Of a stretch of 64,000 nucleotides of DNA, positions 14,267-34,484 are shown in pieces (position 1 is the first letter of the stretch; every line of letters starts with the position of its first letter). Both the position numbers and the translations under genes were made by a program. Under the pieces are notes generated by a model that had not been told where the DNA came from, ran no database searches, and saw nothing but the letters and a program-made list of their open reading frames with translations. The DNA is from Alphaproteobacteria bacterium. Lineage in GTDB: Bacteria > Pseudomonadota > Alphaproteobacteria > SP197. The DNA is taken from the NCBI GenBank assembly GCA_965228895.1, contig OZ245842.1:3552001-3616000 (forward strand), read 5' to 3'.

Positions 14267-14608
14267 ATGGCCAAGGACCAACGCTCCATCGTTAACCTTT
14301 ATGACGCCACCTATGGCCCCTACGACATGGAAGGCCCGGTGCAGAAAGACATGAGCGTGTTGCTCGGCAGCTACAACAACGAAAGCCAACGCGGGATCTA
14401 CGTCATCCGCATGGAGCCGGGTGCGGAAACCATCGCCCATACCCACGGCTGCACCGAAGAGTTCTTGATCCTGGAAGGCGAGCTGATCGAGAGCGACGGC
14501 ACCGTCCTGAAGCACGGCGACCTCGTCACCTATGCGCCCGGCAGCCACCACAACTCGCGCACCGAAACCGGTTGCCTTTTGATCGGCTTCGACTGGGATC
14601 GGCCCTAA
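14267..14608 (+). CDS. ChrR-like cupin domain protein
   Basis: GGAGG RBS; HTHGCTEEFLILEG, PGSHH, TGC. Confidence 0.85.
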   Translation: MAKDQRSIVNLYDATYGPYDMEGPVQKDMSVLLGSYNNESQRGIYVIRMEPGAETIAHTHGCTEEFLILEGELIESDGTVLKHGDLVTYAPGSHHNSRTETGCLLIGFDWDRP

Positions 14609-15357
14609 ATTACGATCGGTACCAGCAGGCAGAGATAACAGGAGAGCGCCAGAGCCGGCCCGAACGGGAAGACCCGGCCGCGGCCCGTGCCGCGCCATAT
14701 CAGCGCCAGGACGACGCCGGCCAGGCCGCCCAGGACCAGAAAAGCCGGAACCAGCGGCAGACCCAACCATAAGCCCGCTACCGCCATCAACTTGACGTCG
14801 CCCAGGCCCAGGCCCTCGCGGCCCCGGATGCGGCGGTAGAGCCAACGCAACGCCATGCCGGCGGAACCCAGAATGAGCGCCGCGGCAAGGCCCAGGGCGC
14901 CGGCGCCAATCGGATCGCCAAGCGCCATCCACCAGCCTGGCGCCAGCACTGCCGCCGCAATCTGCAGCGGGTCCGGCAGATAGCCGTGCTCCAGGTCGAT
15001 CACCGCCATCATGATCATGATCAGGCCGAGTGCGGCCAGCATGGGGAACGCCGGCACGAAACCATAAGTGAGCCATGCCGCCAGGAACGCGACGGCGGTC
15101 GTGACCTCGATCGCCACATAGCGCACGCCGATCGCGGCACCACAGTGGCGACAGCGCCCGTGGGATAAAATCCAGGACAAAACCGGAACAAGATCGCGGG
15201 CGGTGAGCGCCGTCGCGCAGGCTGGGCACCGTGAACGCTGTTCACGGAAGCTCTCGCCGCGCGGCATCCGGTGGGTCAACATGGTTGCGAAACTGCCAAA
15301 AACTAGCCCTAATAGGGTAACCACTACCCCTTCCGAGAGCGTCCCGAGCACTGTCAT
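14605..15357 (-). CDS. pilD: Prepilin peptidase/N-methyltransferase
   Basis: GSF, RSRCPAC, GRCRHC, IDLE, GLGDVKL, PFGP. Confidence 0.93.
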   Translation of the reverse strand: MTVLGTLSEGVVVTLLGLVFGSFATMLTHRMPRGESFREQRSRCPACATALTARDLVPVLSWILSHGRCRHCGAAIGVRYVAIEVTTAVAFLAAWLTYGFVPAFPMLAALGLIMIMMAVIDLEHGYLPDPLQIAAAVLAPGWWMALGDPIGAGALGLAAALILGSAGMALRWLYRRIRGREGLGLGDVKLMAVAGLWLGLPLVPAFLVLGGLAGVVLALIWRGTGRGRVFPFGPALALSCYLCLLVPIVI

Positions 15358-15490
15358 CGGCCGGCGGCCCAGCGGGACGGCGTGGCGAAAATGCATCGCC
15401 TGATTGCAGAAAGATTCAAGATTCCCAACGGGTTGGTTCCAAATCCTTAAGTTCTAATGTATATGGAATCGGTAATGTACTGTTCTGGGG

Positions 15491-17236
15491 TTGGGGTTGG
15501 TGTCGTTGAGATCGGATATCTACACCAAGTCGCCGCCGCGCGCACGATTGGCGCTGGCGGCGATCGCCGTTGCGTCACTGCTGCTCGCAGCGTGCAACAA
15601 ACCGCTGGGTGATTTTCACGATTCCGATGCCGGCCTGACCAAGGCCGACTACGAAGACATCATCGGCAGTGCGGCGACCCCGCCGGACAGCAGCGCCGTG
15701 CTGGAGCCAGAAGCGCCACCGATCCCGGACCTGATGCCGGCGCTCGTCGCGCCAGTGCCGCCGGCCGGGCCGGAAAACCGCCTGGTATCGATTTCCGTCG
15801 TCGACACCGTGCCGATCCGAGACGTCCTGATCGAATTGGCCAGGGCGGCCGAGGTTGACCTGGAACTCGATCCCGCAATCGAGGGTGGGATCATCTTCAG
15901 CGCCCAGAACCGGCCCTTCATCGAGGTCATCGACCGCATCTCGGGCATGGCCAACCTGCGCTACGAGTACAAGGGCGGCATCTTGAGGATCGAAATCGAC
16001 CGGCCCTATCACGCGACCTACAAGGTCGAGCATCTGGCCGCCGCGAGGAGCGCCACCAGCTCCGTCGACATCTTCACCGACGTCTTCTCGGCGGTCGGTG
16101 ACAACTCCATCAGCAACGGCTCGGCCGCACGTATCGAGCAGGTCACCGAGAACGACTTCTATGGCGAGCTGGCGACCAATGTGCGTCAGATCCTGACCAA
16201 TTCCTCGCCGTCCGAGGAAATCGAAGAAATCCAGCTCGCTTCGGTCCAACCGACACTGGACGGTGAGGGCGAGGAAATCACCGATGCGGTCGCAGAACCG
16301 GTCGAGGACTTCTCCATCAACCGCCAGAGCGGCCTGCTTTCGGTTTACGCGACCCAGCGTCAGCACCGCCTGGTGCAGGACTATTTGCGCGAACTGATCA
16401 TCCGGTCGTCGTCGCAGATCGTGGTCGAGGCCAAGGTGTTGGAAGTCCAGCTGAGCGACGAGTTCCGCAGCGGCGTCGACTGGAGCGTGGTGGTCGGTCT
16501 GTTGGGCGGCAATGCCGGTTTCCTGCTGAACACCGGCATTGCCAACATCCCCAACAACGCGCCGGATCTGGCCCAGCTCAGCTTCGTCGGCGGCGATGTC
16601 GACGCGGTCGTCAACCTGATCAGCGAGTTCGGGACCACGCGTACGCTCGCCAACCCACGCCTGTCGATCACCAACAACGAGCCGGCGGTCCTGAAGGTCG
16701 CCCAGAATCAGGTCTATTTCACGCTTGAGTTCGAGACCAACACGACCCAGGGCGTCGTGACCGAGACCGTCGAGAGCACGGTCAACACGGTGCCGATCGG
16801 TCTCGTCATGCTGGTGCAGCCGTCGATCGATCTGGACACCAACCGCGTGACGTTGAGCCTGCGCCCGACCCTTTCCAACATCGTCGACTTTGTCGACGAT
16901 CCAGCGGTGTCGATCGAGTCCAACAACACCGTCATTTCGCAAGTCCCGGTCGTCGAGGTGCGCGAGTTCGATTCCATCGTCACCGCGCGGTCCGGCGAGG
17001 TCATCATTTTGGGCGGCCTGATGCAGGAGACCGCCCAGAACAACGAGGCCGGCCTGCCCGGCTTCCAGGACATCCCCTGGGTGGGCAACGCCTTCAAGTC
17101 GAATGACGACGATCGCGAGGTCCGCGAACTCGTCATCTTCCTGCGCGCCACCATCGTGCCCCAGCCGGTGCCGGCGCCTGCGGATATCGATCTCTACAAC
17201 ACCTTCGCCATCGACCCGCGGCCGCTCACATTCTAA
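15491..17236 (+). CDS. Outer-membrane secretin, MshL-like lipoprotein
   Basis: LLAAC lipobox; QIVVEAKVLEV, GVDW, NNEPAVLKV, ILGGLM, ELVIFL; start uncertain. Confidence 0.9.
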   Translation: MGLVSLRSDIYTKSPPRARLALAAIAVASLLLAACNKPLGDFHDSDAGLTKADYEDIIGSAATPPDSSAVLEPEAPPIPDLMPALVAPVPPAGPENRLVSISVVDTVPIRDVLIELARAAEVDLELDPAIEGGIIFSAQNRPFIEVIDRISGMANLRYEYKGGILRIEIDRPYHATYKVEHLAAARSATSSVDIFTDVFSAVGDNSISNGSAARIEQVTENDFYGELATNVRQILTNSSPSEEIEEIQLASVQPTLDGEGEEITDAVAEPVEDFSINRQSGLLSVYATQRQHRLVQDYLRELIIRSSSQIVVEAKVLEVQLSDEFRSGVDWSVVVGLLGGNAGFLLNTGIANIPNNAPDLAQLSFVGGDVDAVVNLISEFGTTRTLANPRLSITNNEPAVLKVAQNQVYFTLEFETNTTQGVVTETVESTVNTVPIGLVMLVQPSIDLDTNRVTLSLRPTLSNIVDFVDDPAVSIESNNTVISQVPVVEVREFDSIVTARSGEVIILGGLMQETAQNNEAGLPGFQDIPWVGNAFKSNDDDREVRELVIFLRATIVPQPVPAPADIDLYNTFAIDPRPLTF

Positions 17237-17326
17237 AATCACCATACGTCGGCGGGCTTTGTCTGGGGGTAGGCAAACGGCGGGTTTAGGGCGCATCGGG
17301 TTAAAGGGGAAGTTGGGTCTTAAGCC

Positions 17327-18094
17327 GTGTTTACGACGTTCCGCTATATCGTGCTGACGGCCGTGCGCGATCGGTTGCTGATCGGCGTGGCCATCGCGCT
17401 TGTGTTGGCCGCACTGTTGGGCGCTTTTCTGGGCGATGCGACGGCGCTGGAACAGCGCCAGATGTCGCTGGCCTATGCCGGTTTCACGACCCGGCTGATC
17501 CTGGCCATGGGGCTCATCCTGTTCGTTTGTTTTCACGTGCAGCGCAGCTACGACAACCGTGAAATCGACCTCATGCTGTCGCGACCGATCTCGCGCGCCC
17601 AGTTTGTCATCATCTATTGGCTCGGCTTCTCTGGCGTCGCCGTCATGCTGGCAGTGCTCGCGGCCATCGTGTTGCCGATTGCCGGTTTGCCCGATGGCGC
17701 CGGTCTGGTGCTCTGGGCGATCAGTCTGATTCTGGAATCCCTGCTTGTCGTCGCGCTGAGCCTGTTCTTTGCGCTGACGTTGAAAAGCGCCGTCGCGTCG
17801 GTGATGGCGAGTTTCGGGTTCTATCTGCTGGCCCGGATGACCGGTTTTCTGGTCAACATCGCGGAGTCCGATTGGGCGATCCTGCAGGAATCGGCGGTTG
17901 GATCGCTGTCGGCCTATGGCGTCTTCGTTTTCGGTTTCATCATGCCGCGTCTTGATCTGTTCGGTCAGACCTGGTGGCTGAACTACGGTATGCCCGACGA
18001 TCTGCCGATCGGGCTCATTGTCGGCCAAGCGGTCCTCTATACGGCGCTGTTGATTGCCGCGGCGATCTTCGATTTCCGGCGGCGGCGGTTCTGA
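17327..18094 (+). CDS. ABC-2 type permease (PilI-like)
   Basis: About 6 TM segments; LSRPISRAQF; C-terminal FDFRRRRF. Confidence 0.8.
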   Translation: MFTTFRYIVLTAVRDRLLIGVAIALVLAALLGAFLGDATALEQRQMSLAYAGFTTRLILAMGLILFVCFHVQRSYDNREIDLMLSRPISRAQFVIIYWLGFSGVAVMLAVLAAIVLPIAGLPDGAGLVLWAISLILESLLVVALSLFFALTLKSAVASVMASFGFYLLARMTGFLVNIAESDWAILQESAVGSLSAYGVFVFGFIMPRLDLFGQTWWLNYGMPDDLPIGLIVGQAVLYTALLIAAAIFDFRRRRF

Positions 18095-18096
18095 CC

Positions 18097-18822
18097 ATGG
18101 CGCAGCGTCTGACCCTTGCCGTGATCGTCCTGCTGCTGGCGGGCCAGCTTGCGCTCGCCACCCAGACGATCGGCCGCCACGATTATCACGACCCGCTGAC
18201 CATGGCGCCGCCGCGCCAAGTCGCCAACGTGTTGGGTTTGGGGGACGACCAGTTCTTTTTCCGCCAGGGCGTTCTCCATATCACCCATGCCGGCGCCACC
18301 GGCGGCGAGACGATCTACCTGCGCGATTTCGACTATGATGCTCTGGTCTCGTGGCTGATCCTGCTCGACGAACTCGACCCACGCTCCGGCGCCGCCCCGT
18401 TTCTGGCGGCCTACTGGTACGGCCGCACGCCGGTCGTCGCCGACGCGGCCTTGATGGTCGATTACCTGGAAGCCCGCGCGCTCGCGGACCCCGAAACCGG
18501 CTGGCGTTGGCTGGTCGAGGCCGTCTATCTGGCGCGTTACCGGCTGAACGACGTTGATCGTGCCCTCGCGCTGGCCGAGTTGGCGGCCGACGGAAAGATC
18601 GAAAACGCGCCGTTTTACGTGCAGCACCTGCCCGCCTTCATTCAGCTCGATCTCGGCGAACGCGATGCGGCGCTCGTGTTGCTGCGGGCGTTGTTGGAGG
18701 AGAACCCGGACCTGCCGGAAGATGAGCTCAATCTGTTATTCTTCATGATCGACCGGATCGAACGCGACGGAAGCGACGCCGCCGCACCCGACACGACATC
18801 CGGCGAAACGGACGGAACATGA
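18097..18822 (+). CDS. Membrane-anchored helical/TPR-like pilus-associated protein
   Basis: N-terminal TM; LDELDP; Trp/Tyr-rich helical repeats; cotranscribed with the permease. Confidence 0.6.
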   Translation: MAQRLTLAVIVLLLAGQLALATQTIGRHDYHDPLTMAPPRQVANVLGLGDDQFFFRQGVLHITHAGATGGETIYLRDFDYDALVSWLILLDELDPRSGAAPFLAAYWYGRTPVVADAALMVDYLEARALADPETGWRWLVEAVYLARYRLNDVDRALALAELAADGKIENAPFYVQHLPAFIQLDLGERDAALVLLRALLEENPDLPEDELNLLFFMIDRIERDGSDAAAPDTTSGETDGT

Positions 18823-19919
18823 ACGACATTACACTCTCGCTCTCGCAGATCCTGCAGCTCGTCGGCGTGGTGCAATGCGTTTACGTCATTGCCCTGACGC
18901 TGGTGCGCACCGACGACTACCGTTTCGCCGCCCTGCCCGTGCTGCTGTTCGCCGCCATCGGGCTGAGTTTTGCCGTTCAGTTGGTGATGACGCTGACCGA
19001 TCTCGGCGAAAGCCCGTTCTTGAACGGTGTCTATCTGTTTGTCGAAACCTCGATACCGCCACTGATGTACCTGATGGTGATCGAGCTGGTGAAACGCCGA
19101 ATCCCAGCATCGCCCCATTGGTTGATCCTGGGCTTGCCGCTTCTGGCCGTGCCGGCGATCAACGTTGCGGTACAGGCTGAGTCCGTTTGCCTGGGAGGGG
19201 ACGGCAGTTTCTGTGTCGATCCCTACCCGCTGTTTGCCCTGTTCCGCGTTGTCGCAGGCGTCGCGATTCTGCTGCTCTTGCTGGTAGTTGTCTCACGGGA
19301 TCTCAAGACTGTCCTGACCCAGACCATGGGCAAGGAGAAGTATTGGATCATCATCGCGCTGATCGGCGCCATCATCGCCTTGATGGCCGACAATCTGCTG
19401 AGCGTCTTCGGCATCTTGAACGAAAGCGAGTCTGTCTTCGTAGCCACAGTGCTGGAACTGACGCTGGTCTACCTGCTGATCTCGTCGCTGTTCCGCGTCT
19501 ATGGCGGCGCCGTCACGATCCGCACAAATCGGGACAAGGCACGCGACGGCGAGCGCGAGCCGCTCAACGATGATGAGATTAAGCTGGTCGAACGCATCAA
19601 CGAGTTGATGACGCTCGACAAGGTCTATCAGGAGGCATCCTACAGCCGGAAGGATCTGGCCCAGGAACTGACCATCGCCGAACACCAGTTGTCGCGGATC
19701 ATCAATACCGGTTTCGCCATGAGCTTCAGCGACCTCATCAACACCCACCGGGTAGAGGAGGCAAAGTATCTGCTGCGCACCACCGAAGAACCGGTCAGTT
19801 CCATCGCCTTCGACGTCGGCTTCAACAGCCTGGCATCGTTCAACCGCGTGTTTCGCAAGGTGACCGATCAGACCCCGACAGCGTTTCGCCAGAATGGTGG
19901 CGAGGCACCGACCGCGTGA
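18819..19919 (+). CDS. Membrane-embedded AraC family regulator
   Basis: About 6-7 N-terminal TM segments; C-terminal LSRIIN...IAFDVGFNSLASFNRVFRKVTDQTPTAFR. Confidence 0.92.
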   Translation: MNDITLSLSQILQLVGVVQCVYVIALTLVRTDDYRFAALPVLLFAAIGLSFAVQLVMTLTDLGESPFLNGVYLFVETSIPPLMYLMVIELVKRRIPASPHWLILGLPLLAVPAINVAVQAESVCLGGDGSFCVDPYPLFALFRVVAGVAILLLLLVVVSRDLKTVLTQTMGKEKYWIIIALIGAIIALMADNLLSVFGILNESESVFVATVLELTLVYLLISSLFRVYGGAVTIRTNRDKARDGEREPLNDDEIKLVERINELMTLDKVYQEASYSRKDLAQELTIAEHQLSRIINTGFAMSFSDLINTHRVEEAKYLLRTTEEPVSSIAFDVGFNSLASFNRVFRKVTDQTPTAFRQNGGEAPTA

Positions 19920-20279
19920 TCCGGATTTGCCGACGGCATCTTGTTGCCAGCCTATCCTGTCGATCGTAGTAGATTCTCGGCTTTTTCGACTAACCTTCTG
20001 ATTCAACGCTGAATCTTGTGCACCGCAGCATGGGAACTCGGCCCGTTCCCATGCCAATTTAGAGCTGGAACTCCTCAATCTGTAAATCTGACGCCGCATG
20101 ACGCCAGATAGCGAAGACCCCCCAAAGGATTAGCCCTAAAGAGTAGGTCAGAGGAGAACGAGAGCGTTGCGTCTGTGCCACTTTGGGACAGCCGCGGATC
20201 GAGCAAAGCGCGATCGGCTTCGTATCACAATGAAACAGCCGGCGAGCCGGCAGACGGACCAACGCGAGGATCCAGAACA

Positions 20280-20942
20280 ATGCAGGGTAACGTGGGTACA
20301 AACAAACACAGCTCCGAACGCGGCTTCACGCTGGTCGAGCTTTCCATCGTTCTCGTCATCATTGGCCTGTTGATTGGTGCTGTCCTGAAGGGGCAGGAAC
20401 TGATCGAAAGCGCGCGGCTGAAATCGCTGATGACGCAGATAAACAGCTACAAGACGGCGACCCAGATCTTCAAGGATCGCTATGGCTCGCTGCCCGGCGA
20501 TTTCGACGAAGCGACCACCGTGCTGAACGCGTCGGCCAACGGTGATGGTGACGGCATCATCGACGGCAATGGCGGCAACGGCGAGGGCCCGCTCTTCTTC
20601 GAGCATCTGGTCCGTGCCGAGCTCATTTCCGGCGTTTCGGTCAACGATCCGATCCCCGACAGCAAGGCCGGCAACGGTCAGGTCCAGGCCGACAACGACG
20701 ACGTCAACCAGGGCTCGCAAGACACCAACTTCTTCCGCGCCGGCGGCCTGAACGGCGTCGCCAGCACACGCGACATCCTGACCGGCGCCCAGGCGGGCGA
20801 GCTGGACAACAATTTCGACGACGGCAGCGGTATCACGGGCGATATCCAGACCGAAGGCGGCAATGACTGCCGGACCAATGCCGGCGTCCACAACTTCACC
20901 GACGGCGATGTGGCCTGTGTCTTCTTTGTGAAGATCGAATAG
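20280..20942 (+). CDS. Type IV pilin (probable major pilin)
   Basis: G|FTLVELSIVLVIIGLL class III signal with E5; LPGD; C-terminal Cys pair; own RBS and terminator. Confidence 0.9.
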   Translation: MQGNVGTNKHSSERGFTLVELSIVLVIIGLLIGAVLKGQELIESARLKSLMTQINSYKTATQIFKDRYGSLPGDFDEATTVLNASANGDGDGIIDGNGGNGEGPLFFEHLVRAELISGVSVNDPIPDSKAGNGQVQADNDDVNQGSQDTNFFRAGGLNGVASTRDILTGAQAGELDNNFDDGSGITGDIQTEGGNDCRTNAGVHNFTDGDVACVFFVKIE

Positions 20943-20964
20943 GCCGCCCGACCATGACGGATAG

Positions 20965-20996
20965 AGGGCCAGCCGGCTTGCCGGCTGGCCCTTTTT
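20965..20996 (+). terminator. Intrinsic terminator after pilin
   Basis: AGGGCCAGCCGGC-TT-GCCGGCTGGCCCT followed by TTTT. Confidence 0.88.
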
Positions 20997-21166: not shown

Positions 21167-22531
21167 GTGAGCATCCTTTACAAGGCATTATCGAAGGCCG
21201 CGCGCGAGAACGCCGAGCAGGCGCAGGACGCGCCGCTGGTGCTCGACGACGACATCGGCCACGACCCCGGCAGCGCCTTCGACGACGCGACCTATCGCGA
21301 GCCACGCCGGCGCCCCTGGGCGTTGCTGGGCTTGGCCGGCGTTGTCATCGCGGGCTGCGTCGGCGGCTACGTCTATCTCACCTCACCGGAAGACGATGAT
21401 GTCATGGTCAACACCGGCGGTGAGATCGTCGACTTCTCCAAACAGAACCAGACCGCCGACAACGACGAACCCGATCTGCCCACGGCCGCTGCAGCTGACG
21501 ATGCCGTGGACGAGATGATGGTCGAGGTTGTCGAAACGGACGAAGCCGCCGATCCGAACATGGCGATGGAACTTGCGCCAGAGGATCCGGCAGCCACGGT
21601 CTCGACCGATGACACGGCGACCACCGCGCTCGATATCGTGCCGGCGGCCTCGTTGGATGCTGTCAACGCCAGCGGAAACGCCGCCGAGGTCGCCGAAATC
21701 ACCGAAACGGTTAGCGAGACCTCAGCGGAAGGCCCCGCCGACGCGACCGCGGCCGTCAACGGCGAGACCATTGAGGAAACCCTGGCGCGGCTCAGCACCG
21801 AACGCGGCGGCGATGACCTCGCCGCGCCCATCGAGATCGACCGCACGCCCGAAGCAGCCATGGAAGCCGCGATCGTGGCCGAAGCCGACAGCACCGTATC
21901 AGCCAGTGACACGACCGCCGCCGAAACCACCGTCGAATTCACCATCGACGCCGAAGGCTCCAGCAACCGGCAGAAGTTCGAGGCAGCCTACGCCGCGCTT
22001 CAGGCGGGCAACGCGGAAGCTGCCATGGATCTCTACATGGACGTGCTGATCGAGGAACCGGACAACCAGTTCGCCCTGTTCGGCTTGGCCTCCACCCTGC
22101 AGCGCATGGGTTGGCTGGGCGAAGCCCGAGCCACCTATGAAGAGTTGCTGGCGATTGACCCGAACAACCGCGGCGCGCTCACCAACATGATGTCCCTGAT
22201 CGCCCAGGAAGCGCCCGATCAGGCGCTTGCCAACCTGCAGCGGCTCTATGAGATCAACCCGGGATTCAGTCCGATCCCCGCGCAGATCGGCCTGCTCTAT
22301 GCCGATCTCGGCGATTACGGCGAAGCCGTGCGTAACCTGACGCTCGCCATCGACATGGAGCCCGACAACATGAACTACGTCTACAACCTCGCGATCATCC
22401 ACGACCGGCTCGGCCGGCACGGCGAAGCCCAGGCGCTCTATGAACGGGTGCTGGAGTTTTCCGAGTATCGCGATGTCAGCGTGCCCGTCGCGGCGATCCG
22501 CGAACGCGTGTCCTACCTGAAACGATTGTAA
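21167..22531 (+). CDS. MshN-like TPR protein with TM anchor and long acidic linker
   Basis: N-terminal SILYKAL motif; TM; D/E/A/T-rich linker; about 5 TPRs (YNLAIIHDRLG). Confidence 0.75.
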   Translation: MSILYKALSKAARENAEQAQDAPLVLDDDIGHDPGSAFDDATYREPRRRPWALLGLAGVVIAGCVGGYVYLTSPEDDDVMVNTGGEIVDFSKQNQTADNDEPDLPTAAAADDAVDEMMVEVVETDEAADPNMAMELAPEDPAATVSTDDTATTALDIVPAASLDAVNASGNAAEVAEITETVSETSAEGPADATAAVNGETIEETLARLSTERGGDDLAAPIEIDRTPEAAMEAAIVAEADSTVSASDTTAAETTVEFTIDAEGSSNRQKFEAAYAALQAGNAEAAMDLYMDVLIEEPDNQFALFGLASTLQRMGWLGEARATYEELLAIDPNNRGALTNMMSLIAQEAPDQALANLQRLYEINPGFSPIPAQIGLLYADLGDYGEAVRNLTLAIDMEPDNMNYVYNLAIIHDRLGRHGEAQALYERVLEFSEYRDVSVPVAAIRERVSYLKRL

Positions 22532-22547
22532 GCGGAGAGATCAGGCG

Positions 22548-26389: not shown

Positions 26390-27087
26390 GACTCATCCCA
26401 ATCGTCGTTGTCGTCGTCGTTGTCGTCGTCATCATCGTCCCCACTGCCGGCCACGACGACCGCATTGTTCCAGTTGATAGACAGCGTGCCTTCGAACACG
26501 GCAACGCGTTCGCCGGCAATGATTTGGTCCAGCAATCCATCGGAGATATCGCTGACCCGCCGAACGCTCAGCGCGTCGACCTGGACCTGACCGTCCAATC
26601 GGCCGATGAACTCAGCGACAAAACCCAGAATCTGCGTATCCGTCAGGCTGCGGATCTCCAGGCCGATTTCCGTTCTGGTCAGATGCAGATCGGTGCCGTC
26701 GTCACCCTTGATCTCCTCGACCAGTTCAGGCCGGAAGTCGTAACCCAGGAACACCAGTCCGTACTTCGGACCCAGTTCCTCCAGCAACTGTGCAGCGCGC
26801 AGACGGCTCTGCTCGGTCAGGAAGCCGGAAGCGACGATCGTCTCGTAACGCTCGCCCTGAGCCTGCACGACGGCGATCTCATCCTTCAGTTCGCCGATAC
26901 GCTCGTTGAACTCCTCGGTTTCCCATTCAAGGCTGCCGATCTCGATCAGCTTCTGCTGGTTCCGGGCCTCGATCTCGCTGGAATAGTGGACGACCGCGCC
27001 ACCGACGACGATCAGCACGATCATGGGGATGATCAGCCGCCGTGCGATGGCCTTCAGCACCTGCGGTGTCAGGTAATTGAGATTCAT
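26386..27087 (-). CDS. PilO/MshJ-like alignment protein
   Basis: TM, coiled coil, then a ferredoxin-like region; operon position; poly-Asp tail. Confidence 0.6.
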   Translation of the reverse strand: MNLNYLTPQVLKAIARRLIIPMIVLIVVGGAVVHYSSEIEARNQQKLIEIGSLEWETEEFNERIGELKDEIAVVQAQGERYETIVASGFLTEQSRLRAAQLLEELGPKYGLVFLGYDFRPELVEEIKGDDGTDLHLTRTEIGLEIRSLTDTQILGFVAEFIGRLDGQVQVDALSVRRVSDISDGLLDQIIAGERVAVFEGTLSINWNNAVVVAGSGDDDDDDNDDDNDDWDES

Positions 27088-28652
27088 GACGCCGCCTCGC
27101 TCTGCTCGACCGTCGGCAGGATGATACTGATGACGGCGGCGAACCCGGTCTCACCCTCACCATGCGGATCACCCAGGGCGACTTCGCCGATCAGGTTCTG
27201 GTTCGGCAGAATGTCGACCGGCGGGTCGGTCACGCGCACCTCGAAACCCGGCATGATCGCGGCCATGCGTTCGGCCAGCGCATTGGTCACGACAACGGCG
27301 TCTTCCATGTCGCCGATGGCGCTGTCCAGATGGACCGTCAAGGCCAGACGAATGTCGCGCAAGCCCGCCTCTTCTTCGACCGTCCAATCGACTTCATGCA
27401 CCACGACGTCCGGTCCCAGCGTCGGGCCGATCAACGCAAGAAACGGCATCGGCGACGGCGCGTTGGTCGAGAGCCGATCATAGGTCGCCACCGTGTCGGC
27501 GACCTCAGGCGCGGAAACCAGGAAACTCGCGGCAAGGTTGGCGGTCGCTTCCAGTTCGGCGTCGCGTTCCGTCGCCATCAGCGTGATGTCACGGTAGGTC
27601 CTGTCGATCTCCTGGGATTCGACATAGGCTTCCGATAGACCGAACGTAGCGTAGCCGACGACCAGCGCGATGAAGACATAGGCCGCGCGCGTGGTCAGCG
27701 CGCCCGCGCGTTTTTCGTAGAGCTCCTCGGGCAGCAGCGAGAGGACCGGGCGCCGCTTCTGGGCGAAGACGGCGCCGTGCAGGACCTCGCCATAGCTATC
27801 GGTGGCATCGGCGACACCCGCCAGCTTCAACCGCTCGGCCGCGTCATGGGTGGTCACCATGCGCAGATGCGACGGCGACATGCCGAGGTTGAGCAGTTCC
27901 TGACCGACCTCCAGCGTTCCCACGACGATGATGTCCAGGCCCTGGTCGTCGCTGTAGGACATACGCCGCAAGTAACCCATGCTCAGCTTGTATTCGCGCT
28001 CGATAGTCGCGGCGACTTCGCCGGGACTGGCGTCCTCCGGCAGGCTTTGCGTCAGACGCGTGAACACGAACTCGTCGCCACGAATGACGACCTGGCGGAA
28101 ACCGCCGGTGCGGTGGCGCGTCACCAGCATGACCCATTGCGGCCGGCTGCCGCGCCGATGAAACATGTTGGAGAGGTTGCGCGCCAGCGACACCGCTTCC
28201 AGCGGCAGCAGCGAGAAAGGCTTGACCGGGTTGGGCGCCTGGTTGATCCAGTCGATCCAGCCATCCAGCGCCGGTGATGCCGGCAACCCGGCCAAGAGGT
28301 ACCGGCGATCGCGCCGCTCGCCATCCTGACGGCCCAAATAGTGCGCGGCCTTGATCTTGGCTTCCGAAAACGCGGTGCTCAACCGGCGCTGCAGCATGCC
28401 GGCGGCGTCGAACATGGAGACCGGCGGGATCGACTCCTTGGCGAACGACTGTTCGAGCACGTCGATCAGCGGATAAAGCGGCGTCGAGGGCGAATCCGAC
28501 AGCATCTCGCGCATCTGCGCGCTGTCGCCGGGTTTGCTGGTCGGTGCAAAACACCGGTCGCGCACCCGCGAACCTGTGACGCGCAACAGCACCGCGCCTT
28601 CGTCGCCGATGATCAGGACGAACTTGTTGGACGTGCCGAACGAGAGGTTCAT
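27084..28652 (-). CDS. PilM-PilN-like (GspL/MshI-type) fusion
   Basis: About 350-aa cytoplasmic domain (GGFRQ...FTRL), single TM, periplasmic domain; follows pilC. Confidence 0.6.
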   Translation of the reverse strand: MNLSFGTSNKFVLIIGDEGAVLLRVTGSRVRDRCFAPTSKPGDSAQMREMLSDSPSTPLYPLIDVLEQSFAKESIPPVSMFDAAGMLQRRLSTAFSEAKIKAAHYLGRQDGERRDRRYLLAGLPASPALDGWIDWINQAPNPVKPFSLLPLEAVSLARNLSNMFHRRGSRPQWVMLVTRHRTGGFRQVVIRGDEFVFTRLTQSLPEDASPGEVAATIEREYKLSMGYLRRMSYSDDQGLDIIVVGTLEVGQELLNLGMSPSHLRMVTTHDAAERLKLAGVADATDSYGEVLHGAVFAQKRRPVLSLLPEELYEKRAGALTTRAAYVFIALVVGYATFGLSEAYVESQEIDRTYRDITLMATERDAELEATANLAASFLVSAPEVADTVATYDRLSTNAPSPMPFLALIGPTLGPDVVVHEVDWTVEEEAGLRDIRLALTVHLDSAIGDMEDAVVVTNALAERMAAIMPGFEVRVTDPPVDILPNQNLIGEVALGDPHGEGETGFAAVISIILPTVEQSEAAS

Positions 28653-28710
28653 GGCTGACCTGCCGACGTGAAGCGGGTTATTGGCGGCTGATGTTGCATC
28701 GGGCCCCGTC

Positions 28711-29922
28711 CTAGAAGCCCATGTTGCCGAAGTTGTCATAGATCGGGCCGAGGACACCCAGCACGACCCACAACACGACAGCGCCGATCGCGATGGTCAG
28801 CGCCGGTTCGATCGAGCTGATCATCGACGTCACGGCATTGTCGACCTCGCGGTCGTAGAAATAGCCGATGTTCTCCAAGGCATCGTTCAGTTTGCCCGAC
28901 TCCTCGCCGATCTTGAACATGCGCACGACCAGATGCGGAAACTGCCCGGTCGACTCGAGCGAGGCCGAGAGCGAGCTACCGCTCTGCACGTTCTGGCGCG
29001 CCATTTTGAGGGACTCCGCCAGCATCTTGTTGGCGACCACCCGACGGCCCGTATCGATGCAGTTCAAGACATCGATACCGCTTTGAAACGTCAACGCGAA
29101 GAAATGCGCGAAGCGCGCCAATGCCAGCTTCTTCAGCACCGGGCCAACGCCCGGAATGCGGAACTTCATGGCGTCGAACCAATAGGAGAAGCCGTCGAAG
29201 AACCGCAGCATGAACGTCACGATCAAAAACCCGATAACGGGCAAAGCAAGCACCACCCACCAATAGGCGGCGAAGAAGTTCGATGTCGCGATCAGCGCGC
29301 GTGTCATGAAAGGCAGCTCGCCGGATGTCGAAATCAGGAACTCCGACACCTGCGGCACGACAAACACCATCATCATAAAGATAACGCCCATGACCATGAT
29401 CATCATGAACAGGGGGTAACGCGTCGCCTTCTTGATCTTCGACGCCATCTCGCCCTGCCACTTCAGATGGTCGGCCAGATGGCCGAAGGCGTTCGACAGA
29501 TTGCCGCTCTGTTCGCCGGCGGCGACGACGCCGGTAAAGACGGCATTGAAGACGCGCGGATGCATCTCCAGCGCGCGGCTGAGGTACATGCCGTCGCTGA
29601 CGTTCTTGACGACTTCGGAAAGAATGTCCTGTAGGCGGCCAGAATCAGTCGCCTCCCGCACATCGTTCAGCGCATCCAGCAACGGCACGCCCGCACGGTC
29701 CAGCTGCTGTAGATGAATGCACAACTGCACCATGTCGTCGTTGGTGATCTTCTTCTGCAGAAAGGTCGTGACCTTGCTTTGACGTACTTCGCCATGACGG
29801 ATCAGGTCCAGGCCCATGACTCTCAGGTTCGATTCAAGGTCCATGACGTTGACCGCGTTCAACGTGCCGGAGACATTGCGGCCGCTTTGGTTCATGGCGC
29901 GGTACTTGTAGAGCGGCATCAA
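28711..29922 (-). CDS. pilC: T2SSF-family platform protein (PilC/MshG)
   Basis: AGVPLLDAL, AGEQSGNL, ATRYP, IGEESGKL, IEP. Confidence 0.93.
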   Translation of the reverse strand: MMPLYKYRAMNQSGRNVSGTLNAVNVMDLESNLRVMGLDLIRHGEVRQSKVTTFLQKKITNDDMVQLCIHLQQLDRAGVPLLDALNDVREATDSGRLQDILSEVVKNVSDGMYLSRALEMHPRVFNAVFTGVVAAGEQSGNLSNAFGHLADHLKWQGEMASKIKKATRYPLFMMIMVMGVIFMMMVFVVPQVSEFLISTSGELPFMTRALIATSNFFAAYWWVVLALPVIGFLIVTFMLRFFDGFSYWFDAMKFRIPGVGPVLKKLALARFAHFFALTFQSGIDVLNCIDTGRRVVANKMLAESLKMARQNVQSGSSLSASLESTGQFPHLVVRMFKIGEESGKLNDALENIGYFYDREVDNAVTSMISSIEPALTIAIGAVVLWVVLGVLGPIYDNFGNMGF

Positions 29923-32000
29923 AACAGCCTGTCGGTCATGTTGATGTGGCGCACCAGCTCGGCGATGCTGGTCTCGCCGGCAAGCACCTTCGCGACACCG
30001 TCATCGCCCATGGTCTTGAAGCCGTGCTTGCGCGCGCAAGACAGAAGCTCGACACGCGACGCCTGTTTGGCGACGAGCTCGTCCATCTCGTCGTTGAAAC
30101 CCAGAATTTCGACCGCCGCCACACGGCCCCGGTAACCCCGGTTGTCGCAGGCTTCGCAGCCGATGGGATGCCAGACTTCCGGTGCGTCGGCGGGGTCGAC
30201 ACCCAGCGCCTGGCATTCGTCTTCGCTTGCCGGGCGCGCTTCCTTGCAGGCATCGCACAGGCGGCGGACCAGACGTTGGGCCAGGATACCGATGACGTGG
30301 CCAGCCAGCATGGACGGGTTGAGTTTCAGATCGACCAAACGCGGAATGGCACCCAACGCGTCGTTGGTATGCAAGGTCGTATAGACCTGATGGCCGGTCA
30401 TCGCCGCGCGCAACGCCATGGTCGCGGTGTCTTCGTCGCGCACCTCGCCGATGAACACGATGTCCGGGTCCTGGCGCAGGATCGAGCGCACGCCTTCGCC
30501 GAACGACATGCCGGCGGCCTCGCGGATGTGGGACTGGCGGATCAGCGGCAGTTCGTACTCGACCGGGTCTTCGAGGGTCATGATGTTGACCTCGACCGAG
30601 TTGATCTTCTCCAGCATCGCGTAAAGCGTCGTCGTCTTACCGGAACCGGTCGGGCCGGTGATGACGATGATGCCTTCCGGGCGCTTCAAGAGCGTACCCA
30701 TGACCCGCGTGTTGTGCTGGCTGAAGCCAAGCTCCTCCAACGGCTTCAGCGACTTGTGCTTATCCAGTACGCGGATGACGATGTTCTCGCCATGCACGGT
30801 CGGGTGCGATGCGACACGGAAGTCGACCTCGCGCCCGCCGACCTGAATGCTCATGCGGCCATCCTGCGGGTTGCGCGTGTCGGCGATGTTCATGCCGGAA
30901 ATGATCTTGATGCGCACCGAGATCGCCGGCCAATAGTCCTTATGGAACGTGCGCACCTGGGTCAGGATGCCGTCGACGCGGTAGCGCAGGCGAACGAACA
31001 CGCCTTCCGGCTCGAAATGCATGTCGGACGCGCCGACCTTCACCGAGTCCATGATGATTGCGCTGACCAAGCGCACGGTCGGGTTGACGTAACCGTCCTC
31101 GGTCGTCAGGGCCTGAATGTCGACGACGCCGGTTTCGATCTCGCGCAGGATGCCGTCGATCGACATCTCGTAGCCATAGAGCCGGTCGATCGCTTCGACG
31201 AGATCCTGCTCGGAGGTGAGCAGCGGCAGGATTTCGATGTCGCGCGGGAAACAGCGGCGCAACTGATCAAGCGCCAGAACGTCATAGGGATCCGACATCG
31301 CCGCTTGCAGGACGTCATCGACCAGCGCGACCGGCAGCACGGCATGTTTCGACGCGATCTCCTTGGGCACCTGCTTGATCAGATCGGCATCGAACATCGC
31401 GGTCGCGGGATCGAACTGATCGAGGCCGGTGGATTCCGCCAGCACCGCCGACAGTGCCGACTGCGTGATGAAACCGAGTTCGACGAAGACTTCACCCAGC
31501 AGCTTGTCGCCGCGCATACGTTCGCGCATGGCGACATCAAGCTGGTCCTGGGAGATCAGGCCGAGTTCGCGCAGACGCTCGCCCAACCGCACTTGTTTGA
31601 CCTGGCGGGTCGCGGGCGCACCGGGGGGACGCGTGGGCTGGGCGGGCTCCTCCAACATCTGGGCCATGTCAGGCATAGGCGGGATCGCCGGCATTTCGGG
31701 CACAGGCGGCGTATCGTCGGAATCTGGCGGGGCTTCCGAGGCCTGGTCAGTCTTGGCCACATCGTTGGCGGCAGCGACGGTTTCGTTGCCATCGACGCGA
31801 ATGTCGAAACTTGGTTTTGGTGCGGCATCAGACGCGACGCCTGTATCCGACGGCGATCCCGATCGAACCGGCGGCGGCGGTGGTGGTGGCGCGCTCTGGC
31901 GTTTGGCCGCACCGGCGCCCTTGCCCATGTCAGCGGCGCCCAGATCCGCGGCCACGGCCAGCGGTTTACCTGGATTGCCCGGCTTGCCGAACACTGCCAT
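29919..32000 (-). CDS. pilB: Pilus assembly ATPase with MshEN domain (PilB/MshE)
   Basis: RLGERLRELGLI...LLGEVFVELGFI; ASDMHFEP; GPTGSGKTTT; LRQDPD; tetracysteine LCDAC/GCEAC. Confidence 0.93.
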   Translation of the reverse strand: MAVFGKPGNPGKPLAVAADLGAADMGKGAGAAKRQSAPPPPPPPVRSGSPSDTGVASDAAPKPSFDIRVDGNETVAAANDVAKTDQASEAPPDSDDTPPVPEMPAIPPMPDMAQMLEEPAQPTRPPGAPATRQVKQVRLGERLRELGLISQDQLDVAMRERMRGDKLLGEVFVELGFITQSALSAVLAESTGLDQFDPATAMFDADLIKQVPKEIASKHAVLPVALVDDVLQAAMSDPYDVLALDQLRRCFPRDIEILPLLTSEQDLVEAIDRLYGYEMSIDGILREIETGVVDIQALTTEDGYVNPTVRLVSAIIMDSVKVGASDMHFEPEGVFVRLRYRVDGILTQVRTFHKDYWPAISVRIKIISGMNIADTRNPQDGRMSIQVGGREVDFRVASHPTVHGENIVIRVLDKHKSLKPLEELGFSQHNTRVMGTLLKRPEGIIVITGPTGSGKTTTLYAMLEKINSVEVNIMTLEDPVEYELPLIRQSHIREAAGMSFGEGVRSILRQDPDIVFIGEVRDEDTATMALRAAMTGHQVYTTLHTNDALGAIPRLVDLKLNPSMLAGHVIGILAQRLVRRLCDACKEARPASEDECQALGVDPADAPEVWHPIGCEACDNRGYRGRVAAVEILGFNDEMDELVAKQASRVELLSCARKHGFKTMGDDGVAKVLAGETSIAELVRHINMTDRLF

Positions 32001-32300
32001 GCTTTACCTCACCGCGCCTGAAACACCCGGATGCCGTCGGTGGCCGACACCTCGGCACGCGACGACACGACGTCACCAGTTTCCCGTGGCGTTTTCAGGC
32101 GTCCCCAACTGCTTTCTTCCGGCGTATTTTAGTACACAAGCGGTCGGATTCATATTCCGATAACGCTTAACCCCACCTATAAAGCGTAATTATGTGAACT
32201 GTGTTTATGATGCACAATCAAACGGGTCTGTAGCGACCGTCACAACTACATTAGAGGTTCTCTTGATTTGATGGTAACAGTGATCGAGCAGCACAAACGC

Positions 32301-33059
32301 ATGATGACGTCTGTTTCAACACGAAAACCGTCCCAATCGACCGAAAAGGGCTTCACCCTGATCGAAATGGCGATTGTTATTGCCATTATCGGCGTTTTGG
32401 TCGCCATGCTGGCGCCGCTTCTGGGCAACATTGCCGAAAACAATCGCACCGAGCTGACCGTCCAGCGCATGGACCAAATCGAGAACGCGATGGTCGTTTT
32501 CCTGCGGCAGAACGGGCGTTTGCCATGTCCGGCCGCCCCCAACGGCTCTCCCTTGGGCGACGAGCGGGCCACCTGCGACACCGGCAACAACAATGACGGC
32601 ATCGTGCCGTTCCGTAGTCTCGGTCTGGCCGAAGCCGATGCGCGCGACGGCTACGGCAACTACTTCACCTATCACGTCGCCGAGGACTACGCTGACAGCA
32701 GTCTGCCGACGGTGCTGACCGACCCCGGTGGCTTCTGTTTTGTCGCCTCCGGCGAACCGGACGGCGATCTGGATGTCGAAGACATCTCCGGCACCGACGT
32801 GACCGGCCAGGACATCGCTATGGTTCTGATCAGCCACGGCAAGAACGGTTATGGCCGCTACAACCCGCCCGGCAACGGCAAGGTCGACGCCAATGGCGGC
32901 GGCACGTTCGAGGACGAAAACAACGATTCCGACGCCGACTTCGTCGACGGCATCCGCCTCACCGACGACGCGACCGACGGCCCGCTCGATGACACGGTGA
33001 TCTGGAAAACCCGCGACGGCCTGGCCGGCCAGGCGATCGAGTTCGGTTGTTCGCCGTAA
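32301..33059 (+). CDS. Second type IV pilin (minor pilin-like)
   Basis: G|FTLIEMAIVIAII; GRLPCPA, DGYGNYFTY, ISHGKNGYG. Confidence 0.88.
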   Translation: MMTSVSTRKPSQSTEKGFTLIEMAIVIAIIGVLVAMLAPLLGNIAENNRTELTVQRMDQIENAMVVFLRQNGRLPCPAAPNGSPLGDERATCDTGNNNDGIVPFRSLGLAEADARDGYGNYFTYHVAEDYADSSLPTVLTDPGGFCFVASGEPDGDLDVEDISGTDVTGQDIAMVLISHGKNGYGRYNPPGNGKVDANGGGTFEDENNDSDADFVDGIRLTDDATDGPLDDTVIWKTRDGLAGQAIEFGCSP

Positions 33060-33071
33060 CAGACGCCAGCG

Positions 33072-34484
33072 CTAGACCACGTTGCTTTCGTCGCTCCAGC
33101 TTTGCAGTTTGCGGTAGACGGTCGACGGGCTGATTTCCAGCAACGCCGCCGCGCGCGGCACATTGCCGTCGCTCAGACGCAAGGCGTCTTCGATGGTCTG
33201 CCGCTCGACTTCGTGCAGCGGCCGGATCGCGGCTCCGGTCAGGTCACCGGGTTCGCCATCCGCATTGCGCTGGCGCAGCGGGTCGTTGGCCGGCTGCGGC
33301 AGACCGGCCGAGCCATCCAGCGGCGGCGGCAGCATTTCGCGCGTCACCACTTCGCCGGTGTTCAAGACGACGACATTGCGGATGATGTTCTGCAGCTCCC
33401 TGACATTGCCCGGCCACGAATAGGCGCGGAACAGGTCGCGCACGCTGGCATCCAGCCGCACAAAGGGCTTGCTCTCCTGACGCGCAAACTCGCGCAGAAA
33501 ATTCTCGGCGATGTCGATCACGTCGTCGTCACGCCGGTTCAGCAGCGGCAGATGGATCGGAATGACATGCAGGCGGTAATAGAGGTCGGCGCGAAAGCGG
33601 CCACTCTCGACTTCCTTCAGCGGGTTGCGGTTGGTAGCGCAAACAAAACGCACATCGACGTGCTCGGACCGGCTGGAGCCGACCCGCTGGAAGCTGCCGG
33701 TCTGCACGAAACGCAACAGCTTGGCCTGAAGCGCCGGCGCCATGTCGCAGATTTCGTCCAGGAACAGCGTACCGCCGTCGCTCAAGGTCGCGGCGCCGTC
33801 ACGGCTGCTGACCGCGCCGGTGAACGCGCCTTTGACATGACCGAACAACTCGCTTTCCAAGAGATCGCGCGGGATCGCCGCGCAGTTGATCGCCATGAAC
33901 GGCCCCGACGCCCGCTCGCTCAAGTTGTGGATGGCCTCGGCACACAATTCCTTGCCCGTCCCGCTCTCGCCGGTGATGAAGATCGATGCCTGGCTGGGCG
34001 CGGCGCTTTGGATGGTCGCATAAACACTCTGCATTTCCATCGACGAACCGATGAAACCTGCGAACGCGCTGTGCCGCGTTTCTGTCGCCATCCCGTCGAC
34101 CAGACGCTGCAGTTCGCGCCGCTCCAGCGCATTGCGCAAGGTGACGATCAGGCGTTCCTGACTGAATGGCTTGACCAGGAAATCGTAAGCGCCGTCGCGC
34201 ATCGCTTCGACGGCGGCGCTGACCGACCCGTGGGCCGTGATGATCACGACAGGGCACGGCAACTGGCGCTGTTTGATCCAACGCAGGATCTCCAGCCCAT
34301 CGATATCGGGCAACCTGAGATCGAGAAGAACCGCGTCCGGGGCCTGTGCATCGATGGACGAAAAGGCCGCCTCGCCGGTTTCGACATGTTCGACAGTGAC
34401 AGGCTCAAAGCGCAAGTATTCCTTGTAGACACGCGCCAATGGCGGCGTGTCCTCGACCAAAAGCACTGTCGGCTGACGGTTCAT
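33072..34484 (-). CDS. Sigma-54-dependent response regulator, LuxO-like
   Basis: REC domain VEDT...LLDLRLPD; GESGTGKE; GAFTGA; WPGNVRELQN; Fis-type HTH SPSTVYRK. Confidence 0.92.
   Translation of the reverse strand: MNRQPTVLLVEDTPPLARVYKEYLRFEPVTVEHVETGEAAFSSIDAQAPDAVLLDLRLPDIDGLEILRWIKQRQLPCPVVIITAHGSVSAAVEAMRDGAYDFLVKPFSQERLIVTLRNALERRELQRLVDGMATETRHSAFAGFIGSSMEMQSVYATIQSAAPSQASIFITGESGTGKELCAEAIHNLSERASGPFMAINCAAIPRDLLESELFGHVKGAFTGAVSSRDGAATLSDGGTLFLDEICDMAPALQAKLLRFVQTGSFQRVGSSRSEHVDVRFVCATNRNPLKEVESGRFRADLYYRLHVIPIHLPLLNRRDDDVIDIAENFLREFARQESKPFVRLDASVRDLFRAYSWPGNVRELQNIIRNVVVLNTGEVVTREMLPPPLDGSAGLPQPANDPLRQRNADGEPGDLTGAAIRPLHEVERQTIEDALRLSDGNVPRAAALLEISPSTVYRKLQSWSDESNVV

Follow-up and report, generated by a model that had tools for sequence, protein, structure and literature searches.

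Alphaproteobacteria are usually described as organisms with Tad pili. The mannose-sensitive haemagglutinin (MSHA) pilus of Vibrio cholerae and Aeromonas is encoded by mshHIJKLMNEGF together with mshBACDOPQ, which we take to be a set of seven pilin genes. According to the accessible part of the survey by Denise et al. (2019), systems of the MSH class were previously recorded from Gammaproteobacteria, and the survey added Chrysiogenetes and Epsilonproteobacteria; they occupy a single locus, are always devoid of a prepilin peptidase and are derived from within the type IVa pili (T4aP), which are polyphyletic. The TFF-SF model of the class treats mshA, mshE, mshG, mshL as well as mshM as mandatory (Denise et al. 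2019). In the accessible text of two further papers, a 'type IV pilus' (T4P) was assigned to basal Rickettsiales and inferred to be ancestral in the order (Schön et al. 2022, PMC9352585; Castelli et al. 2024, PMC10847448), the former study having used TXSScan and TFF-SF. Here, we analyzed a stretch of 64,000 nucleotides from the genome of an alphaproteobacterium (assembly GCA_965228895.1, contig OZ245842.1, positions 3,552,001 to 3,616,000), referred to as the window, to which all coordinates apply unless stated otherwise. A gene cluster of about 20 kb within the window likely encodes a complete secretin-dependent T4P machine belonging to an alphaproteobacterial lineage related to the MSHA (MSH-class) pili.

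Pfam and NCBIfam scans of the open reading frames (ORFs) confirmed all 17 genes of the pilus cluster between 14.6 and 34.5 kb of the window, and every gene listed in an initial annotation of this DNA was recovered. The assignment of the host to the Alphaproteobacteria also held; the named relatives identified below are metagenome-assembled genomes (MAGs) of Alphaproteobacteria, Rhodospirillaceae and Rickettsiales. The source genome is closed and consists of a single contig of 5.53 Mb, in which only this locus harbors PilB, PilT, a two-domain platform protein and canonical prepilins. The system was further proposed to be self-contained, and all core parts indeed lie in one stretch of 20 kb. Three T2SSE genes occur in the whole genome. 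The remaining secretin, T2SSE and platform genes belong to a Tad-like locus outside the window (genome positions 5285183–5291496), which combines the only other T2SSE ATPase with a second secretin and a pair of single-domain T2SSF genes. By junctions between genes of −4 to +16 bases, the cluster can be divided into four units and two divergent single genes (pilD and the gene of prepilin 2). The first unit consists of the genes for the secretin, a permease, a 241-residue protein and an AraC-type regulator; the second of the gene of prepilin 1 alone, followed by a terminator-like hairpin; the third of a TPR gene, an AAA_22 ATPase gene and pilT; and the fourth of pilB, pilC, the gene of a putative PilM-PilN-type fusion (hereafter PilMN), two genes for proteins of 233 and 245 residues and, at its end, the gene of an ATP-binding cassette (ABC) ATPase. 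The G+C content is flat along the locus (0.60–0.64). With regard to horizontal acquisition as an island, no integrase was found among the scanned genes adjoining the locus.

The relation to the MSHA pilus is carried by the secretin and a set of associated proteins. The secretin (15491–17236, +; 581 residues; PF00263, 112 bits) has a signal peptide that terminates in the lipobox L-A-A-C. Its best NCBIfam model was MshL (TIGR02519) with 212.7 bits against a cut-off of 250.2, while GspD and PilQ reached 96.4 and 76.3 bits, respectively. The AAA_22 ATPase (22548–23414, +; 288 residues, devoid of a transmembrane segment; PF13401, 85.7 bits) is MshM/GspA-like and shares 42% identity over 269 residues with the gene that takes the place of mshM in the MSHA locus of Aeromonas caviae. 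Directly upstream, an MshN-like bitopic inner-membrane protein is encoded (21167–22531, +), with a short cytoplasmic N-terminus, a transmembrane segment (residues 53–71), an acidic linker and a periplasmic domain matching TPR families at residues 270–432; it weakly resembles (29%, E 1e-4) what the Aeromonas locus encodes in the place of mshN. The PilB/MshE-like extension ATPase (29919–32000, −; PF00437, 392.8 bits) carries an MshEN domain (PF05157, 66.8 bits) and scored 51.3 bits with the cyclic di-GMP (c-di-GMP) motif model NF053729, above its cut-off of 38. With the PilB model TIGR02538 it reached 483 bits against a cut-off of 675.65, and with the GspE model 497 against 630. Residues 1–135 of the ORF are rich in proline and alanine and remained unaligned in more distant relatives; this part may represent an extension or lie upstream of the true start. 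The platform protein PilC/GspF (28711–29922, −; 403 residues; PF00482, two domains, 168 bits) scored 313 bits with TIGR02120 against a cut-off of 424. Both PilB and PilC are thus placed between the GspE/GspF and PilB/PilC models and below all of the cut-offs.

For phylogenetic placement, the named references were the Aeromonas caviae MSHA locus (order mshH-I-J-K-L-M-N-E-G-F), the mshL locus of Legionella, pilBCD of A. baumannii, xcp of P. aeruginosa, gsp of Pantoea and the type II secretion system (T2SS) of Indioceanicola. Five complete or near-complete genomes of other classes, labelled by NCBIfam cut-offs, were added. The MshL-linked loci of these genomes are of two kinds, for which we use our own labels, type A and type B. 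Type A loci, found in other classes of Pseudomonadota, contain a homolog of PilMN at a distance of approximately 5 kb from the MshL secretin and have the order (AAA_22), MshL, TPR, pilB, pilC, PilMN-like, two small genes and pilins. The other MshL loci of these genomes, type B, group with those of Aeromonas and Legionella. One genome of another pseudomonadotal class was found to possess both types side by side, with their ATPases in different clades.

In the secretin tree (28 rows), the alphaproteobacterial clade (SH-aLRT support 99) was sister to type A (98), and both joined canonical MshL (99). The resulting MshL superclade of 16 rows comprises the alphaproteobacterial, type A, Aeromonas and Legionella sequences, and five PilQ (100) and four GspD (92) sequences were placed outside. 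In the ATPase tree (42 rows), the protein of the window fell into an alphaproteobacterial clade of eight (98), again sister to type A (100), and separate from canonical MshE together with type B (92), GspE (99), T4aP PilB (100) and TfpB (100). Both trees were obtained by quick searches with SH-aLRT support only, on a small chosen set of five genomes and seven named records. The backbone of the ATPase tree is poorly supported and does not by itself join the alphaproteobacterial clade to canonical MshE. Constraining the alphaproteobacterial, type A and canonical MshE ATPases into one group, which was chosen after the trees had been seen, cost 2.63 log-likelihood units (p-AU 0.42), which neither demonstrates nor rejects that the ATPase shares a common origin with MSH.

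The initial annotation had described the system as a hybrid of the type IVa kind that mixes features of several pili. Because the secretin and ATPase trees are congruent and the gene combination is conserved across many families, the sequences rather point to one coherent old lineage and not to a recent mosaic. The type IVa label is not supported either, since PilB (483 vs. 676 bits) and the secretin on the PilQ model (76 vs. 284 bits) both fail the T4aP models. In contrast, the description as an MSHA-like and distinct subtype is supported; the secretin lies inside the MshL superclade, and the alphaproteobacterial sequences form a clade of their own in both trees. The proposed phylogenies of PilB and the secretin revealed no nesting in the PilQ, GspD, GspE or T4aP PilB clades, the secretin being placed within the MshL superclade, and the proposed survey of synteny found the gene order again in Rhodospirillaceae, Rickettsiales and further alphaproteobacterial MAGs. 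The linked pilT and pilD and the ABC module were rightly named as differences from canonical MSHA; no match to pilT or pilD occurs in 25.6 kb of the Aeromonas MSHA locus. The novelty is lower than had been implied, as type IV pili of basal Rickettsiales have already been published.

Downstream of pilC, three genes encode the putative alignment proteins. The ORF of PilMN comprises 557 codons and most likely begins at the 36th, because relatives align from that point only, which results in a protein of 522 residues (27084–28652, −). The AlphaFold2 model (19 homologs; mean pLDDT 80.7) displays an actin-like domain (residues 1–300), a long helix with a lone hydrophobic segment (326–344) and a C-terminal alpha/beta domain. 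Top Foldseek matches were P. aeruginosa PilM (5eou, E 1.4e-10), Thermus PilM-PilN (2ych), FtsA and the cytoplasmic domain of GspL/EpsL. Based on this modeled architecture and the matches, the protein is predicted to be a PilM-PilN-type fusion with a GspL/MshI-like architecture. The following gene (26386–27087, −) overlaps both of its neighbors by 4 bases and encodes a bitopic protein of 233 residues with a transmembrane segment (18–36), a coiled coil and a C-terminal domain; it was designated PilO/GspM-like by its architecture and position. Among the 23 members of its family, no meaningful Pfam match and no sequence match in the PDB was obtained. The ESM Atlas yielded clusters named 'hypothetical protein' only. 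In one cluster that resembles this protein, 18% of the members carry PF17460 (RP854, a Rickettsia family), a hint of vestiges of the system in classical Rickettsia. The third protein (25652–26389, −; 245 residues) consists of a signal sequence, a variable linker and a beta core, residues 113–189 of which were modeled by AlphaFold2 with a pLDDT above 90. In a wide VIA-align comparison of the model, GspB ranked first (Z 7.0, root-mean-square deviation 2.8 over 71 residues; the tool warns that Z below 8 can reflect a common arrangement), followed by the HR domain of GspC (Z 6.2) and, further down, M. xanthus PilP (4.8), the PulC HR domain (4.6), Neisseria PilP (4.4) and LspC (4.2). Eight of the top 15 rows were HR-domain proteins of T2SS or T4P. 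The Z score is modest and the theme consistent, suggesting a PilP/GspC/GspB-like periplasmic protein with an HR domain of the kind that contacts the secretin. Neither Pfam nor NCBIfam matched any of the three proteins, and comparison of their family profiles with PDB sequences yielded noise. In architecture and fold they appear analogous to MshI, MshJ and MshK.

To the system as a whole, PilMN served as a marker. A profile search of a collection of named genomes yielded seven loci, all in MAGs titled Alphaproteobacteria, Rhodospirillaceae, Rickettsiales or 'uncultured bacterium'. Among 41 genomes of close relatives, PilMN was present in seven, including all three of the genus of the window (its own genome counted), two of three in a second genus and none of 15 in a third. 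The PilMN gene of one genome of the same genus has a single in-frame TAG codon, which may be a sequencing error or mark a pseudogene. When the class was sampled evenly, PilMN was detected (E ≤ 1e-10) in 26 of 401 genomes, which represent 25 of 308 genera; many of these carriers have genomes of 1.2–2.9 Mb. In an even sample of the phylum, all matches stronger than 1e-70 came from the same class, and 40 genomes of other classes matched in the N-domain only (E 5e-10 to 1e-36). From a library of 1.84 billion proteins clustered at 50% identity, 1911 cluster representatives were retrieved at E ≤ 0.001, of which 537 remained at E ≤ 1e-30; those clusters with a name are all called 'hypothetical protein'.

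Within the named MAGs, the order pilB-pilC-PilMN-233-245-ABC ATPase recurs, facing pilT (sometimes as two paralogs), AAA_22 (not always), the TPR gene and a pilin gene. The secretin was found in all five relatives examined for it, at a distance from the pilB-pilC-PilMN locus and as part of a second recurring module of pilD, secretin, permease, 241-residue protein and AraC-type regulator. At these five secretin loci, pilD lies upstream in three, the permease gene and the gene of the 241-residue protein lie downstream in four, and the membrane AraC gene lies downstream in three. Of the 25 further PilMN-positive genomes in the class sample, we retrieved flanking DNA of up to 10 kb to either side of PilMN for 20 and left out five with weak matches or short contigs. 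All 20 loci contained pilB and pilC, 19 PilMN by tblastn and 16 an ABC ATPase gene directly after the alignment genes. Less frequently within reach were the secretin (7 of 20), pilT (6), the permease (6) and pilD (2). The parts of the system are often scattered over two or three places of a genome, and the layout in the window is the most compact one observed. Since the same gene sets recur in many genomes, the cluster does not represent a chance grouping.

The ABC module postulated at the outset is present but does not form one block: the ATPase (24747–25514, −) and the permease (17327–18094, +) are encoded in two different operons. The ATPase (255 residues; PF00005, 93.5 bits) is encoded by the last gene of the pilB operon, opposite a spurious ORF of 350 residues, and among the NCBIfam models DrrA, NodI and GldA come closest, each with a score far short of its cut-off. 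The permease, also of 255 residues, has at least five hydrophobic segments and is ABC-2-like; as the only permease candidate of the cluster, it has a single and weak Pfam match (PF12730, E 6e-4, 20.3 bits, below the cut-off of 27). After a gap of 2 bases follows a helical protein of 241 residues (18097–18822, +; internal methionine start in an ORF beginning at 17974), whose single N-terminal hydrophobic segment predicts export or membrane anchoring and whose gene overlaps that of the AraC-type regulator by 4 bases. Pfam and NCBIfam scans returned no match for this protein. Its gene is kept downstream of the permease gene in relatives, and it is possibly an accessory subunit of the transporter. 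In the class sample, the permease occurred in 17 of 401 genomes, namely in 17 of the 26 PilMN-positive and in none of the 375 PilMN-negative ones. ATPase and permease were either both present (16) or both absent (4) in all 20 genomes of the fetched loci; the carrier genomes are related and not independent, and we attach no statistic to these counts. Even so, ATPase and permease behave as one module of this pilus and of nothing else in the class sample.

PilD (14605–15396, −; 263 residues) is a bifunctional prepilin peptidase (PF06750, 98.6 bits; PF01478, 53 bits), the gene of which is divergent from that of the secretin. Both prepilins were identified by the N-methylation motif (PF07963, TIGR02532). 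Prepilin 1 (20280–20942, +; ORF from 20175) has a likely leader of approximately 14 residues, the processing site G|FTLVE, a mature length of about 205 residues and a C-terminal cysteine pair. It is the candidate major pilin because its gene stands alone before a terminator-like hairpin (20972–20989) directly 3' of the stop codon. Prepilin 2 (32301–33059, +; ORF from 32268) has a leader of about 17 residues, the site G|FTLIE and a mature length of about 235 residues, and resembles solved pilins in the N-terminal helix only. The retraction ATPase PilT (23417–24580, +; 387 residues) scored 462.3 bits with TIGR01420 against a cut-off of 319.1 and is the sole PilT of the genome. Five loci of more distant relatives contain two tandem PilT paralogs, about 60% and 40% identical to that of the window, which suggests a PilT/PilU-like pair. 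Two regulators are encoded in the cluster. The AraC-type protein (18819–19919, +) appears membrane-embedded by six hydrophobic segments and has a C-terminal helix-turn-helix domain (PF12833, 73.6 bits, residues 280–358). The sigma-54-dependent response regulator (33072–34514, −; PF00158, PF00072, PF02954) is LuxO/NtrC-like and scored 631 bits with the LuxO model NF041946 against a cut-off of 800. It adjoins the pilus locus in a MAG of the same genus but not generally in relatives, and its membership in the pilus system is uncertain. A scan for sigma-70 promoters yielded two sites against 3.2 expected.

Gene content, protein folds, conservation, co-distribution and the place in the trees of our sample are what the sequences show; from these we infer how such a pilus would be produced, retracted and controlled. 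The linked PilD would cleave and methylate both prepilins, and the PilB/MshE-like ATPase would polymerize the pilins on PilC. MshE is activated by c-di-GMP through its MshEN domain, and by analogy extension would probably respond to c-di-GMP here as well. The motor would be connected with the MshL-type lipoprotein secretin through the PilM-PilN fusion together with the PilO-like and HR proteins. GspA and GspB have a role in secretin assembly; by analogy to this pair and to MshM/MshN, the AAA ATPase and the bitopic TPR protein probably aid assembly or anchoring of the secretin. PilT would retract the fiber. The ABC ATPase, the ABC-2-like permease and the exported helical protein may form a three-part transporter that serves as an accessory module with a PilGHI-like architecture. 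Expression is probably controlled by the membrane-embedded AraC-type regulator, and the sigma-54 regulator may contribute. The most likely role of the system is c-di-GMP-controlled attachment to surfaces or cells, with retraction.

Several features of the locus would also fit a T2SS or another exporter in which the pilins act as a periplasmic piston that pushes substrates through the secretin. No other T2SS exists in the genome, the best NCBIfam models are of the Gsp type (GspG with 29–36 bits for the pilins, GspF for PilC, and GspE slightly ahead of PilB for the extension ATPase), the closest solved secretins are GspD, the top structural match of the HR protein is GspB and a GspA-like AAA_22 ATPase is present. 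However, all Gsp scores remain far below their cut-offs, secretin and ATPase are placed outside the GspD and GspE clades, and GspH, GspI, GspJ, GspK, GspC and GspN homologs were not detected in the Pfam and NCBIfam scans of the locus. The mature pilins, one of which carries the cysteine pair, are also too long for pseudopilins of approximately 130–150 residues. PilT exceeds its cut-off and is translationally linked in its operon, and we know of no T2SS with a retraction ATPase. An exporter is therefore very unlikely. A divergent canonical T4aP without special relation to MSH, which TFF-SF or TXSScan would probably label as such and in which the MshL-like score arose by convergence or is an ancestral state, deserves somewhat more consideration. 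PilT, PilD, the PilM-fold protein and the PilP-like HR protein are typical T4aP parts, and the weak backbone of the ATPase tree leaves room for this explanation, as do, within their accessible text, the derivation of MSH from polyphyletic T4aP (Denise et al. 2019) and the plain 'T4P' call for basal Rickettsiales (PMC9352585). It is nevertheless unlikely in view of the position of the secretin in the MshL superclade (support 99) apart from the five PilQ sequences, the low scores on the PilQ and PilB models, the presence of MshM-like and MshN-like genes and of an MshEN domain, and the location of PilMN homologs of other classes about 5 kb from MshL secretins that exceed the cut-off.

A different question is whether the pilus functions mainly in DNA uptake (competence) or as an organelle for contact with hosts or prey rather than as a general adhesin. 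DNA-uptake pili need retraction by PilT, which the locus provides. Such a function would fit carriers with small genomes that are possibly host-associated, as many in the class sample are of 1.2–2.9 Mb and Rickettsiales MAGs are among the named relatives; T4P-mediated host attachment was proposed for early Rickettsiales in the accessible text of PMC9352585 and PMC10847448. However, the locus contains nothing specific for DNA uptake, with no ComEA- or ComEC-like gene in its Pfam and NCBIfam scans, and the carrier studied here has a genome of 5.5 Mb with a broad metabolism, so that we regard this as quite unlikely to be the main role.

A machine related to the MSHA pilus has to be weighed against a number of our own results. 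The secretin stays below the MshL equivalog cut-off, and the trees are limited in sampling, search depth and, for the ATPase, backbone support. It is by architecture that the 233-residue protein was called PilO/GspM-like, the HR match of the 245-residue protein is modest, and Foldseek returned no match for the latter model at E ≤ 0.001. When the family profiles of PilMN and of the 233- and 245-residue proteins were compared with the single Aeromonas sequences of MshI, a PilN-like protein, MshJ and MshK, the hhalign probabilities were 0.1, 1.1, 1.8 and 16%. Strict and lax motif scans of all six frames of the genome gave two prepilin-like genes only, and neither minor pilins nor a tip adhesin or PilY1 were found. 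Finally, a scan of the window for the sigma-54 promoter consensus with up to two mismatches gave 64 matches against 71 expected, none of them upstream of either pilin gene. All of these count against the MSH-related machine that we favor.

T4aP, MSH and T2SS normally require priming minor subunits. Either initiation differs in the system of the window, or its minor pilins are too divergent for a motif scan. Some relatives have up to seven pilin-like matches in a row (one locus); the lack is a feature of the genome of the window and may also reflect the limits of motif scanning. We would only tentatively go further and propose a distinct and ancient class of secretin-dependent type IV filaments that would be the sister group of MSH and an ancestral trait of much of the Alphaproteobacteria, the stem of the Rickettsiales included. 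Such a pilus would be built and retracted from one or two large pilins without the usual priming by minor pilins and would depend on a PilGHI-like ABC transporter for a step absent from current assembly models; we hold this extended proposal to be doubtful.

Beside the Tad pili of the class, the MSH-related machine would represent a second pilus lineage, predicted to be retractile and probably gated by c-di-GMP, that is thinly spread over about 8% of the sampled alphaproteobacterial genera. The carriers include small-genome relatives of the Rickettsiales, where T4P have been proposed to mediate the first attachment to the host. The families of three core proteins and of two parts of the ABC transporter are not named by any model of Pfam or NCBIfam, and routine annotation thus misses the machine. 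The strict co-inheritance of ABC transporter and pilus offers a tractable second case for the long-unexplained function of PilGHI-type modules, and the system, with its apparent lack of minor pilins, is also relevant to the priming of filament assembly.

Some genes of the window outside the pilus cluster were also of note. An ORF of 623 residues (4842–6713, −) contains TetR_N and TetR_C_6 domains and, C-terminal to these, Rieske and ring-hydroxylating oxygenase alpha domains, and is either a fusion of regulator and oxygenase or two in-frame genes without a stop codon in between. Two small paralogous membrane ORFs of 102 (12230–12538, −) and 108 residues (13684–14010, −), with near-identical C-terminal halves and no Pfam family, flank an ArsR/AHSA1 gene pair. 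Two tandem paralogs (52413–54107, +, and 54211–55944, +) each combine a GNAT domain (Acetyltransf_6) with C-terminal TPR repeats.

Compared to known systems, the locus falls short of the T2SS models, where the secretin reached 96.4 of 351 bits required for GspD, the extension ATPase 497 of 630 for GspE, the platform protein 313 of 424 for GspF and the pilins 29–36 of 88.85 for GspG. With the T4aP of P. aeruginosa, M. xanthus and Thermus it shares the antagonistic ATPases PilB and PilT, PilC, PilD, the PilM fold and a PilP-like HR protein; the T4aP of M. xanthus also has large pilins, as in the window. In contrast to T4aP, PilM and PilN are fused and no Pfam match to PilM, PilN, PilO or PilP exists, the secretin is not PilQ-like (76.3 vs. 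284.35 bits), PilB is below its cut-off, MshM-like and MshN-like genes are present, and the motif scans found no minor pilins or PilY1 in this genome. The ABC module resembles PilG/PilH/PilI of Myxococcus xanthus in that an ATPase, a permease and a third accessory protein are encoded in a T4P cluster; it differs in the distribution of ATPase and permease over two operons, and the likeness is one of make-up. In the accessible part of PMC3724824, which cites Wu et al. (1998), M. xanthus pilGHI mutants are described as devoid of pili and the proteins as essential for translocation of pilin across the inner membrane.

The MSHA pilus has in common with the locus a lipoprotein secretin of the MshL type within the same superclade, an MshM-like AAA_22 ATPase, an MshN-like TPR protein, an extension ATPase with an MshEN c-di-GMP-type domain and the organization in a single locus. 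Unlike MSHA, the locus has linked pilT and pilD genes and an ABC module, two pilins instead of seven, an ATPase in a separate clade, a secretin below the MshL cut-off, and PilMN, PilO-like and HR proteins without detectable sequence likeness to MshI, MshJ and MshK. The type A loci form the sister clade in both trees, share the order of secretin, TPR, pilB, pilC, PilMN-like, two small genes and pilins, and encode a homologous N-domain of PilMN (E 1e-10 to 1e-36). They differ in that the three stretches of 20 kb that were read contained no homologs of pilT, pilD or the ABC-2 permease, and in that two of their three secretins reach the MshL cut-off (258.6, 265.4 and 249.9 bits). The 'T4P' of basal Rickettsiales is probably the same system; among the named relatives are MAGs of Rickettsiales and one Alphaproteobacteria UBA MAG. 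In their accessible text, the corresponding papers (PMC9352585, PMC10847448) treat it by presence and absence only and mention neither the MshL-type secretin nor the PilM-PilN fusion nor the ABC module. A search of the full-text literature found no paper that describes an alphaproteobacterial pilus combining these three features. Type IV pili in basal Rickettsiales were already known; what is new is a lineage, probably related to MSH, in which pilT and pilD are linked and an ABC module is dedicated to the pilus.

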